IMG/VR virus record: IMGVR_UViG_3300025896_000028
Direction: 5' to 3' (one strand)
Origin: a virus
DNA: 64,000 nt
A model generated the notes under the pieces. That model made no database searches. It was not told the origin of the DNA and saw only the letters and a list, made by a program, of their open reading frames with translations. This document shows positions 26,409 to 28,553 of the stretch, in pieces (positions within the stretch are counted from its first letter, which is position 1; each line of letters begins with the position of its first letter). The translations under genes were made by a program, and so were the position numbers.

Positions 26409-27455
26409 ATGACAGGATTATTAGGAATATTTGGAGTTTTATTAAGTGTATTGGTTTCTATTTGGGCTGCAATGAAATATCTTGTGTCACAAAATACAAG
26501 ACTTGATAACAATTTGAGCAAGTTGGTAATACCATTGGTTAAAGGTGCGAAATATAAGTTTGAGTTGGTTAACGAGATTACTGTTAACAAAAAATACCCA
26601 TCGACTTATTCGGCTTTTGCTATCGTAAATGGTATTCCAGTTTTGTTTTCTAGAAGTGAGCGTTTACTTACAGCTGGTTGGCAGTCTAAAGAAATCATAT
26701 CTGAGTTATATTTTTTAAGATGGCATAGAGATAAGGTAGAGAAATTCATACACTCTATAGTAAATAACGAGGAACATGTCAATGTTATGGCGTTGACACC
26801 ATGGGGGTCAGATAAGTTAGGGCAGATATATACTAGAGAAGTACCTAAAGTGTATATAGATGACGAACAATATAGTGATATAGAGAATGATGTTGTCAAT
26901 ATGCTAAAGAACGGTGGTAAAACTAGTGCATTATTACATGGAGTTCCTGGGACTGGTAAGACTAGACTAGTAAAATACTTCTCACTTAAGTATAATTTAC
27001 CAATATACTCAATTTATCTTAACCCAGAGTATAATAACTTGGATATTTTGGTGATGTTTAATGATGTACCAGAGAATTGTATAGTATTATTCGAAGATTT
27101 TGATAACTATTTTGATAAAAGAACTTGTTTGATGAAGAATAATGAAGTAAAGTTTACTTTTGATGTCATATTAAGTATCTTAGATGGAGTTTACAATGAG
27201 TATAACAAGGTTTTATTCGTTATGTCATGTAATGATATCGAAAAAATCGATGATTCAATCAAGAATAGACCATCTAGAATGAAGTTCGTTAGAGAAATCA
27301 CTGGTCCATCCTATGCTAAACGTCTAGAAATACTAGATGGTAACATAGAATTAGCTGAAATGACTGAAGGAATGACCACTGATAAAGTATTCTTTGCCAA
27401 GTCTTTAGAAAAAGATTATAAAAAAGAAGAAATTTTAGAAAAAATACTTGCATAA
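26409..27455 (+). CDS. membrane-anchored AAA ATPase (BCS1-like architecture)
   Basis: N-terminal TM helix, Walker A LHGVPGTGKT, Walker B VLFEDFD. Confidence 0.65.
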   Translation: MTGLLGIFGVLLSVLVSIWAAMKYLVSQNTRLDNNLSKLVIPLVKGAKYKFELVNEITVNKKYPSTYSAFAIVNGIPVLFSRSERLLTAGWQSKEIISELYFLRWHRDKVEKFIHSIVNNEEHVNVMALTPWGSDKLGQIYTREVPKVYIDDEQYSDIENDVVNMLKNGGKTSALLHGVPGTGKTRLVKYFSLKYNLPIYSIYLNPEYNNLDILVMFNDVPENCIVLFEDFDNYFDKRTCLMKNNEVKFTFDVILSILDGVYNEYNKVLFVMSCNDIEKIDDSIKNRPSRMKFVREITGPSYAKRLEILDGNIELAEMTEGMTTDKVFFAKSLEKDYKKEEILEKILA

Positions 27456-27475
27456 TAAAAAAAAAGGTTGTACCT

Positions 27476-27700
27476 TTGTATTATAATAAAAACAAAAAGA
27501 TGAAAAACTATTACACGATACCATTGGGTATATTTCTAAGCTTAATTGCTATTATGAATTTGCTACCATTACTAAGTAGAGCAAACACATTACTTAACAT
27601 TGCTGGGATTATCGGATTGGTAACTCTAGTTATCGTTATCATTAAAACAAAATTATTCACGAGTTTCAAAACAAATTTAAAAACAAAAACAAAAAAGTAA
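27476..27700 (+). CDS. small membrane protein
   Basis: Two hydrophobic helices; TAccTTTG motif at ~27469. Confidence 0.45.
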   Translation: MYYNKNKKMKNYYTIPLGIFLSLIAIMNLLPLLSRANTLLNIAGIIGLVTLVIVIIKTKLFTSFKTNLKTKTKK

Positions 27701-27701
27701 G

Positions 27702-28553
27702 ATGAAAAAATTATTAGGATTATTAGCATTGGTATTATTAATGAGTGTTACATCATGTACCACAGCCGACTCGGCAGAAGTTGCATTGGTTGTTGACCAG
27801 ATTGGAAATGACAAAGGGGTTCCGAATATTCAAATGGCATCTGGATTTATTTTCTATTTCCCGCCAACACAAGACGTATATATGTACCCAACATCAGTTC
27901 AACACAAGGTTTGGACAGCATCAGTAGATGAAGATTCACCAACAGATGAACACATCGATGTAACATCAGCAGATGGAGCAACATTCGGGTTAGATGTAGC
28001 ACTTAATTTACAATTACAAAGAGCAAGAGCTAAAGACTTATTTGTCAAATATAGAATTGAAATGCCAGACTTAATAGAAACGAGAGTTAGAACTATTGTT
28101 AGAAAAGAATTATTAGATAATGCTACACTATTTGCGTCTGATAGCTTACTACAACATAGAAATATTTATGAAGCTAACGTAAGTAAAACATTAGCGGTAG
28201 CGTTGGATAAAGAGGGTTTTACCTTAACTAACATTGCTATTTTAAAAATGGCATTGCCACCATCTTATAAACAAGCGATTGAAAGAAAGATTGCTGTATT
28301 ACAAGAAACTGCAACCATTAAGTCACAAACAGTACAAGCAGAACAAACAGCTTTGAAGAAAGTAGCTTTGGCTAAAGGTAACTATGAAGCAGCTATCTAC
28401 GATGCTAAAACAAAAGAAATCTTATCTCAACCTAAGTTGTTAGAATTGTATAGAGCAGAAACTCAAAGAATTAGAGCAACTAATGGTACGTCAGAGTATG
28501 GTTCAAACAACGTATTCGGTTCTTCATCAAATATTCTTTTGAGTAGAAAATAA
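27702..28553 (+). CDS. SPFH/band-7 (prohibitin/HflC-like) lipoprotein
   Basis: Lipobox LMSVTSC; band-7 core and a coiled-coil C-terminus. Confidence 0.6.
   Translation: MKKLLGLLALVLLMSVTSCTTADSAEVALVVDQIGNDKGVPNIQMASGFIFYFPPTQDVYMYPTSVQHKVWTASVDEDSPTDEHIDVTSADGATFGLDVALNLQLQRARAKDLFVKYRIEMPDLIETRVRTIVRKELLDNATLFASDSLLQHRNIYEANVSKTLAVALDKEGFTLTNIAILKMALPPSYKQAIERKIAVLQETATIKSQTVQAEQTALKKVALAKGNYEAAIYDAKTKEILSQPKLLELYRAETQRIRATNGTSEYGSNNVFGSSSNILLSRK

Follow-up and report, generated by a model that had tools for sequence, protein, structure and literature searches.

In this phage, two unrelated transcription units probably lie side by side, and the BCS1-like AAA+ ATPase and the neighbouring SPFH cassette are probably not functional partners. 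The first unit would be an operon of about ten genes that starts from a promoter at 22184 and ends in the ATPase gene. The second would be a cassette of two genes, for a 66-aa hairpin and an SPFH lipoprotein, read from a separate promoter of the host type. The first-pass annotation had joined the three genes into one membrane module, and its AAA-SPFH partnership on the pattern of FtsH-HflK/C did not hold up: the two genes are rarely found together, a predicted promoter separates them, and no gene family is a frequent neighbour of the ATPase gene. With this result an appealing notion, that of a phage equivalent of FtsH-HflKC, drops out for want of support, and the unit worth study becomes the hairpin and SPFH genes, a small and directly testable two-gene construct.

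The three genes and their products

The window, by which we mean the whole 64-kb stretch that was analysed, is + strand-coded phage DNA with a G+C content of 31-39%. It encodes a NAPRTase, a PRPP synthetase, an RNase II/R homologue and a sigma factor, an auxiliary gene set typical of jumbo phages, and the host of this jumbo phage is probably a member of the Bacteroidota. The nearest relative is a 232,931-bp IMG/VR contig that appears in our survey as loci L003 and L043 (one contig; near-identical, 99%), and a nucleotide search of isolated phages with positions 25000-30000 gave no match. All three ORFs were confirmed, each on the + strand, the middle one with a choice of starts at 27476 or 27500 (Table 1). 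At E<=1e-5 we found 440 homologues of the AAA protein and 360 of the SPFH protein, and the hairpin protein sequence is kept beside SPFH; we therefore conclude that all three are real genes. The phrog_28500 protein encoded just upstream of the ATPase was found upstream of the AAA gene in only eight loci (L003, L004, L005, L008, L043, L047, L048 and L052), which represent seven contigs because L003 and L043 are one.

Table 1. Positions of the genes, protein features and predicted promoter elements discussed in the text.
Feature	Position	Strand	Remarks
-7 box TACCTTTG, nearest predicted promoter 5' of the AAA gene	22184..22191	+	consensus match
79-aa protein (phrog_28500)	26168..26407	+	stop 1 nt before AAA ATG
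BCS1-like membrane-anchored AAA+ ATPase, 348 aa	26409..27455	+	Pfam, PHROG, structure and profile matches
ATPase, TM helix	aa 2-26; nt 26412-26486	+	
ATPase, alpha/beta N-domain	aa 27-141; nt 26487-26831	+	
ATPase, AAA domain	from ~aa 150		
ATPase, Walker A	G178-T185		GxPGxGKT
ATPase, Walker B	L227-D232		LFEDFD; family pattern LxEDFD
ATPase, sensor-1 and arginines	N275; R287, R290		
Left 58-nt direct repeat with predicted promoter	27430..27487	+	overlaps last codons and stop of AAA gene
Predicted promoter of left repeat	-33 TTG 27448-27450; -7 TACCTTTG 27471-27478	+	in 44-nt gap between AAA stop (27455) and ATG 27500
Two-helix hairpin membrane protein, 66 aa	27500..27700	+	loop motif L-L-S-R-A-N-T; basic C-terminal tail
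SPFH/Band-7 lipoprotein, 283 aa	27702..28553	+	start 1 nt after hairpin stop
SPFH protein, signal peptide	aa 1-18		
SPFH protein, predicted lipidated Cys19	nt 27756-27758		
SPFH protein, Band_7 domain	aa 23-215		predicted helical tail to ~aa 261
Right 58-nt direct repeat with second predicted promoter	28548..28605	+	-7 box 28589-28596; faces downstream tRNA/non-coding region

The first gene product had been described as an N-terminally anchored BCS1-like AAA ATPase, and this label is correct. The protein matched Pfam AAA (PF00004, E 8.6e-13) and phrog_7485 (E 1.3e-22). Among solved structures its top relative was Bcs1, with E 7e-12 for the single sequence and 2.5e-20 for a 33-sequence family profile, against which the runner-up AAA family reached 1.2e-14. 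Conservation spans the full length of the family alignment, in which G178, P180, G181, G183, K184, E229, D230, D232, N275, R287 and R290 are invariant, and a hydrophobic segment at residues 1-19 is kept in 33 homologues. The AlphaFold model (pLDDT 89.1) consists of a helix at residues 2-26 (pLDDT 76-86), an alpha/beta domain at 27-141 and the AAA domain after it. Using Foldseek, we found that the model matches Bcs1 chains over the full length (E 3e-20, TMq 0.63-0.66), as it does YjoB of B. subtilis. Full-length Bcs1 chains aligned over about 396 columns, whereas chains holding only the AAA domain aligned over about 250 columns and scored lower (E 6e-12), suggesting that the N-domain adds to the match. 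Pfam BCS1_N gave no match at E<=0.1, and we therefore regard the likeness of the modelled N-domain to Bcs1 as structural only; HMM alignments to Bcs1 start only at residue 136-137. In the viral structure library BFVD, the best matches were BCS1-like proteins of jumbo phages and giant viruses.

Mitochondrial Bcs1 is a heptameric AAA translocase of the folded Rieske protein and faces the matrix. The phage ATPase has the same domain order (an N-terminal TM helix, an alpha/beta middle domain and one AAA domain), together with an LEDxD-type Walker B and a similar Walker A-B segment. It differs from Bcs1 in being shorter (348 aa against about 420-456 aa), in an overall identity of about 15-19%, and in having no Rieske context. 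Searches of protease families in Pfam and NCBIfam gave no match, and the NCBIfam search as a whole returned AAA matches only, all below threshold. The TM helix starts at residue 2 and is thus preceded by only about one residue, so the protein is predicted from the model to have no periplasmic domain. A clamp-loader or DNA-packaging ATPase, which the first-pass annotation had named as the identity that would count against its module, was rejected because Bcs1 tops both the sequence and the fold searches, and the PHROG clamp-loader matches (5.9e-6) were far weaker than that to phrog_7485. Models of defence systems gave weak matches to IetA and TRIP13, which we judged to be generic AAA similarity. 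Across 185,579 species genomes the subfamily occurred in only one, on an 89-kb MAG contig of phage-like DNA without SPFH. Similar BCS1-like proteins are found in Tenacibaculum, Serratia, Acinetobacter, Pectobacterium and crAss-like phages, and BCS1 orthologues are present in all three jumbo phage groups (Iyer et al. 2021, PMC7824862). The phage family is already described, so the ATPase is not new and adds one more member to it.

For the third gene product, the call of an SPFH lipoprotein stood, and that of a coiled-coil tail stays tentative. The protein matched Pfam Band_7 (PF01145; E 8e-17, 62.3 bits against a cut-off of 23.6, residues 23-215) and PHROG 200, 'lipoprotein' (E 2e-37). Its signal peptide has an MKK start, a hydrophobic core and the lipobox VTSC, with S18 and C19 invariant in 22 homologues; membrane attachment is by this lipoprotein signal, with no TM helix. 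In Bacteroidota such a lipoprotein could end up in either membrane. The helical tail, residues 187-261, was seen only in a low-confidence model (pLDDT 49, shallow alignment). A family profile reached prohibitin-2 with a weak match (E 2e-4) across the SPFH2 and coiled-coil region; the single sequence matched no solved structure, and prohibitin was reached by the profile only.

Relatives of the SPFH protein occur in 135 phage records, including P1-like, Erwinia, Burkholderia, Stenotrophomonas, crAss-like and Lak phages. The lipoprotein signal, SPFH domain and predicted helical tail are common to the window protein and the PHROG 200 phage lipoproteins, although the examples from isolated phages are only 22-28% identical to it. 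The window gene also differs in being strictly coupled to the two-TM hairpin gene, a coupling not described for PHROG 200 phages. Papers from 2006 to 2026 mention phage SPFH genes, calling their role unclear. The first-pass annotation had been aware of no described phage AAA-SPFH pair, and this novelty is weakened by the BCS1 proteins of jumbo phages (PMC7824862) and by phage SPFH genes having been noted since 2006.

The small ORF between these two genes encodes two hydrophobic helices, as had been claimed for a two-helix membrane peptide, with the start now moved from 27476 to 27500. The predicted start at ATG 27500 is better placed because TTG 27476 overlaps the -7 box of a predicted promoter and because homologues start at the equivalent MK. 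Hairpin homologues align in register and have in common the loop motif L-[ML]-[NS]-x-[PAG]-[NS]-T and a basic tail. A homologue search with the 66-aa protein gave near-identical proteins only, and as a result the reciprocal conservation test was run with a local HMM. Pfam, PHROGs and NCBIfam gave no NfeD match. A weak match to a '4TM effector' among the defence-system models was judged to be generic TM similarity.

Conservation of the gene pairs

We fetched loci from IMG/VR with flanks of up to 6 kb, comprising seven close AAA relatives, then 75 found by alignment, and 37 SPFH loci; many of the survey contigs are incomplete. AAA and SPFH genes were adjacent in 1 of 71 AAA loci and 1 of 36 SPFH loci, and both counts come from the single contig of L003 and L043. 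A second SPFH scan brought up 47 contigs; the lists of AAA-bearing and SPFH-bearing contigs then had 1 of 121 IMG/VR contigs in common. Contigs of 256, 309, 318 and 322 kb carry the window's SPFH type without its AAA type, and contigs of 204-572 kb carry the AAA type without the SPFH type. Among isolated phages, the closest that encode such an AAA protein are Tenacibaculum phages PTm1 and pT24, and neither has an SPFH gene next to the AAA gene. When we clustered the neighbours of the AAA gene, each family was present in at most 16 of the 71 loci; recurrent neighbours were methyltransferase, HNH, SET, GT2 and SprT-like proteins. Synteny in relatives had been proposed in the first-pass annotation as a check on the module, and there the AAA and SPFH genes are not co-conserved. 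We conclude that a conserved AAA-SPFH pair is not supported and that the two genes are neighbours only in one phage lineage. In two sequenced genomes, those of the window and L003, they stand next to each other in the same orientation, and a cooperation specific to this lineage may exist. The peptide patterns of our SPFH scans cover just their own subfamily (at least 66% identity), and thus AAA-bearing phages could carry a more distant SPFH gene elsewhere.

The link between hairpin and SPFH within the earlier module is real. A two-helix protein of 58-103 aa is encoded immediately 5' of SPFH in 25 of the 36 loci, and in 10 more the hairpin gene lies one gene further 5', behind that of a 120-aa single-TM protein. 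The hairpin HMM matched all SPFH loci except two that are cut off upstream, and it matched none of the AAA-only loci. A single nucleotide separates the hairpin stop from the SPFH start in the window, and the two genes overlap in several relatives. With these results, we conclude that the conserved unit is hairpin plus SPFH, which co-occur in every evaluable locus. Other conserved neighbours of SPFH across the 36 loci encode DUF932, an RNA ligase, a phosphatase and a thymidylate-synthase-like protein.

Promoters and transcription units

Bacteroidota promoters follow a pattern of TTTG at -33 and TAnnTTTG at -7. The octamer TACCTTTG was found in 44 copies where 2.8 would be expected. The + strand carries 38 of them, and in 35 of these 38 a TTG or TAG precedes the box at a distance of exactly 20 nt. 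Most copies are located shortly 5' of ORF starts. We predict that TTG-N20-TACCTTTG is a promoter of the Bacteroidota type. A scan for sigma-70 promoters showed no enrichment, with 31 found and 34 expected, which fits a Bacteroidota-type promoter instead. All promoter calls in this work are consensus matches and denote predicted sites.

The ATPase gene is the last in a run of about ten tightly packed genes (22193-27455) with gaps of about 1-12 nt. Between the box at 22184 and the box at 27471 there is no further TACCTTTG copy. The second of these boxes lies within the left member of a pair of 58-nt direct repeats that are 84% identical and that each contain a predicted promoter, and the left-repeat promoter is predicted to drive the hairpin and SPFH genes. 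Taken together, the boxes at 22184, 27471 and 28589 suggest that the ATPase gene closes the run of about ten genes and that the hairpin and SPFH genes form a unit of their own. A comparison with L003 at the DNA level gave 83-93% identity for the cassette, 93-99% for the AAA gene and 97-98% for the downstream tRNA region. The cassette is thus more diverged than its flanks, indicating that it evolves, or is exchanged, apart from them. A TACCTTTG box stands upstream of the hairpin-SPFH pair in only 8 of 38 SPFH loci, and the promoter argument is therefore valid for the window's lineage only. Between the AAA gene and the hairpin gene we found no terminator, so read-through from the ATPase operon into the cassette is possible.

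Proposed roles and alternatives

The positive charges after the TM helix, together with the cytoplasmic location of ATP, suggest that the ATPase would have its N-terminus facing out and its ATPase domain in the cytoplasm. By analogy with Bcs1, it may form a ring at the inner membrane face and spend ATP to move, insert or remodel a protein substrate there, as Bcs1 does with the folded Rieske protein. A more specific role in membrane-proximal virion assembly, in which the BCS1-like ATPase would move folded head-bound proteins, has been proposed (Iyer et al. 2021, PMC7824862). In its favour, the Bcs1-type fold is the fold of a folded-protein translocase. However, the AAA gene is not among structural genes in the window or in the 71 loci, and its neighbours are of accessory or early type, and we regard the proposal as doubtful.

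For the cassette, the basic ends of the hairpin suggest that both termini would be cytoplasmic and the short conserved loop periplasmic. The SPFH domain would be exported, lipid-anchored and periplasmic, like that of HflK/C. Its helical tail probably assembles the lipoprotein into a ring or cage, as in HflK/C and prohibitin; given the poor SPFH model (pLDDT 49), this expectation is drawn from family knowledge. The hairpin could be a membrane-embedded partner or client of the SPFH protein, and the complex of the two may mark off a patch of membrane early in infection. A host-type promoter and neighbours that are neither lysis nor structural genes point to an early, envelope-directed role for the cassette. 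Our guess is that it most likely serves to protect or modify the envelope, for instance by superinfection exclusion or by modulation of a host membrane protease.

These topologies bear on the reading in which AAA, hairpin and SPFH proteins form one membrane machine, the SPFH scaffold organising the ATPase as HflK/C does FtsH, which we consider highly improbable. In its favour, the three genes follow one another closely and in the same direction in both the window and L003, all three products are membrane-associated, and the boundary between ATPase and hairpin genes lacks a recognisable terminator. In the FtsH-HflK/C and m-AAA-prohibitin supercomplexes an SPFH cage encloses an AAA protease. Here too, genes for a membrane AAA ATPase and an SPFH protein lie side by side, and the SPFH domain of HflK/C is on the periplasmic side, as that of the phage protein would be. 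However, the phage AAA and SPFH genes are separated by a predicted promoter and are not co-conserved by either the locus or the contig counts, and the cassette diverges separately from its flanks. FtsH and the m-AAA enzymes are proteases, whereas the phage ATPase has neither a protease nor a periplasmic domain, with about one residue ahead of its TM helix. HflK/C has a TM helix, whereas the SPFH protein, once cleaved, would have no TM segment. With the ATPase in the cytoplasm and the SPFH protein in the periplasm, the bulk of the two proteins would lie on opposite sides of the membrane, and a direct complex is unlikely.

We weighed two further readings of the cassette. In one, it controls lysis, with the hairpin as a class II-like holin or antiholin and the SPFH protein timing or restraining hole formation. 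The hairpin is indeed small, has two TM helices and ends in a basic tail, and in the crAss-like phage PhiCrAssBcn3 an SPFH gene is followed by genes for a 3-TM protein and a peptidoglycan hydrolase. We found no endolysin or spanin near the pair in the window, however, and no lysis enzyme among the conserved neighbours in the 36 SPFH loci, and the cassette promoter is of the host type common to many small, early-looking genes; lysis control is thus quite unlikely. In the other, the SPFH lipoprotein mimics HflK/C and acts on host FtsH, shifting the turnover of host or phage membrane proteins. The periplasm-facing SPFH domain expected here would resemble that of HflK/C, the closest solved relatives are prohibitins, which are partners of m-AAA proteases, and a Burkholderia phage has prompted the same suggestion (PMC10269572). 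Mimicry of this kind nevertheless appears unlikely, because the phage protein is without the HflK/C TM helix, it matches solved SPFH proteins only weakly (E 2e-4), and the HflKC-FtsH system has no counterpart of the hairpin partner.

Our preferred reading, two unrelated units with a hairpin-SPFH cassette as the second, invites comparison with the NfeD-SPFH operons YbbJ-QmcA, YqiJ-YqiK and YuaF-FloT, in which a gene for a small membrane protein is tightly linked to an SPFH gene and transcribed together with it, as is predicted here. The NfeD partners carry an NfeD/OB-fold, whereas the phage hairpin is without it, at 66 aa and with no Pfam match. The SPFH proteins of those operons are TM- or hairpin-anchored and cytoplasmic, whereas the phage SPFH protein is a lipoprotein. 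The only, and modest, new point is a small membrane partner of an SPFH gene that is strictly coupled to it in a promoter-flanked cassette. More speculatively, and with little confidence, we propose that the cassette is a self-contained, exchangeable device. It would make an early, periplasm-facing SPFH ring in which the hairpin replaces the TM anchor or NfeD, and it would shut out superinfecting phage or shield the envelope. If true, the phage SPFH genes of PHROG 200, widespread as they are, would thereby gain their first assigned function. Small TM ORFs also adjoin the SPFH genes of Ruegeria phage V10, Piffle and PhiCrAssBcn3.

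Small membrane proteins beside the SPFH and BCS1-like genes

Among the loci of the SPFH/Band-7 lipoprotein gene, 15, including L011, L013, L014, L017, L019 and L021-L027, encode a 120-aa protein that has a single TM helix at its N-terminus and whose C-terminus (...RKKLGLE) is conserved. In most of these 15 loci its gene lies between the SPFH gene and the gene for the two-helix membrane protein (hairpin), and the 120-aa protein was without a Pfam match. Among the cases seen, the only phage SPFH gene in a lysis-like context was that of Bacteroides phage PhiCrAssBcn3 (L116, 1453-3062), where the genes that follow it encode a three-TM protein along with a peptidoglycan hydrolase.

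Small membrane-protein genes were also found 5' of the BCS1-like AAA ATPase gene. In a sister clade whose AAA protein is ~71% identical (L005, L007, L008, L047, L048, L050 and L052), three to four such genes are consecutive, and the complete run is visible in L008 (5003-5979). One of these genes, which encodes a 116-aa protein whose TM helices are C-terminal, was recurrent in this 5' position, being present in seven loci. The small membrane proteins of the sister clade are possible clients or partners of the BCS1-like ATPase.

Within the AAA operon, we compared window 25434-25988 with positions 5343-5668 of the closest relative, L003. L003, which is otherwise 93% identical, lacks a 99-aa ORF (25434-25733) together with most of 25737-25988. 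The gap is a small accessory-gene indel.

In the collection of 185,579 species genomes, the sole match to the BCS1-like subfamily had 44% identity and was located on an 89-kb contig (L119, JBBAUR010000009.1) of a 'Bdellovibrionota' MAG. This contig is probably phage DNA that was binned with a bacterial genome.

A promoter-like motif across the window

A bipartite promoter-like motif, consisting of TTG or TAG, N20 and TACCTTTGTA, occurs 38 times on the + strand of the whole window, with the highest density at 35000-64000. Small ORFs lie directly 3' of nearly all 38 copies. This arrangement implies that the window would be transcribed as many single-gene units, and that the phage would have a Bacteroidota host.

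tRNA region and other genes

Window 28600-31300, downstream of the SPFH gene, has few ORFs and raised G+C. Here ARAGORN called the tRNA-Gln alone, whereas Rfam called four tRNAs. Several T-arm-like motifs were also observed at 28.7-29.5 kb. Elsewhere, the window encodes a second AAA-type ATPase, the architecture of which is unrelated to that of the BCS1-like ATPase, and four auxiliary genes.

Coordinates of RNA features and other genes in the window
Feature	Window position	Match or source
Nicotinate phosphoribosyltransferase family protein (auxiliary)	14-1057	
PRPP synthetase (auxiliary)	7268-8260	
Second AAA-type ATPase, 419 aa	13896-15155	Pfam AAA 1.7e-7; phrog_2376 1.8e-52
RNase II/R homologue, complete (auxiliary)	19406-21334	RNB + CSD + S1 domains
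tmRNA-3'-end-like match	28775-28789	Rfam
tRNA, sub-threshold	28852-28945	Rfam
tRNA	30595-30668	Rfam
tRNA, 99 nt	30782-30880	Rfam
tRNA	30978-31048	Rfam; ARAGORN, tRNA-Gln at 30978
tRNA, 99 nt	31157-31255	Rfam
Sigma-factor homologue (auxiliary)	32901-33785
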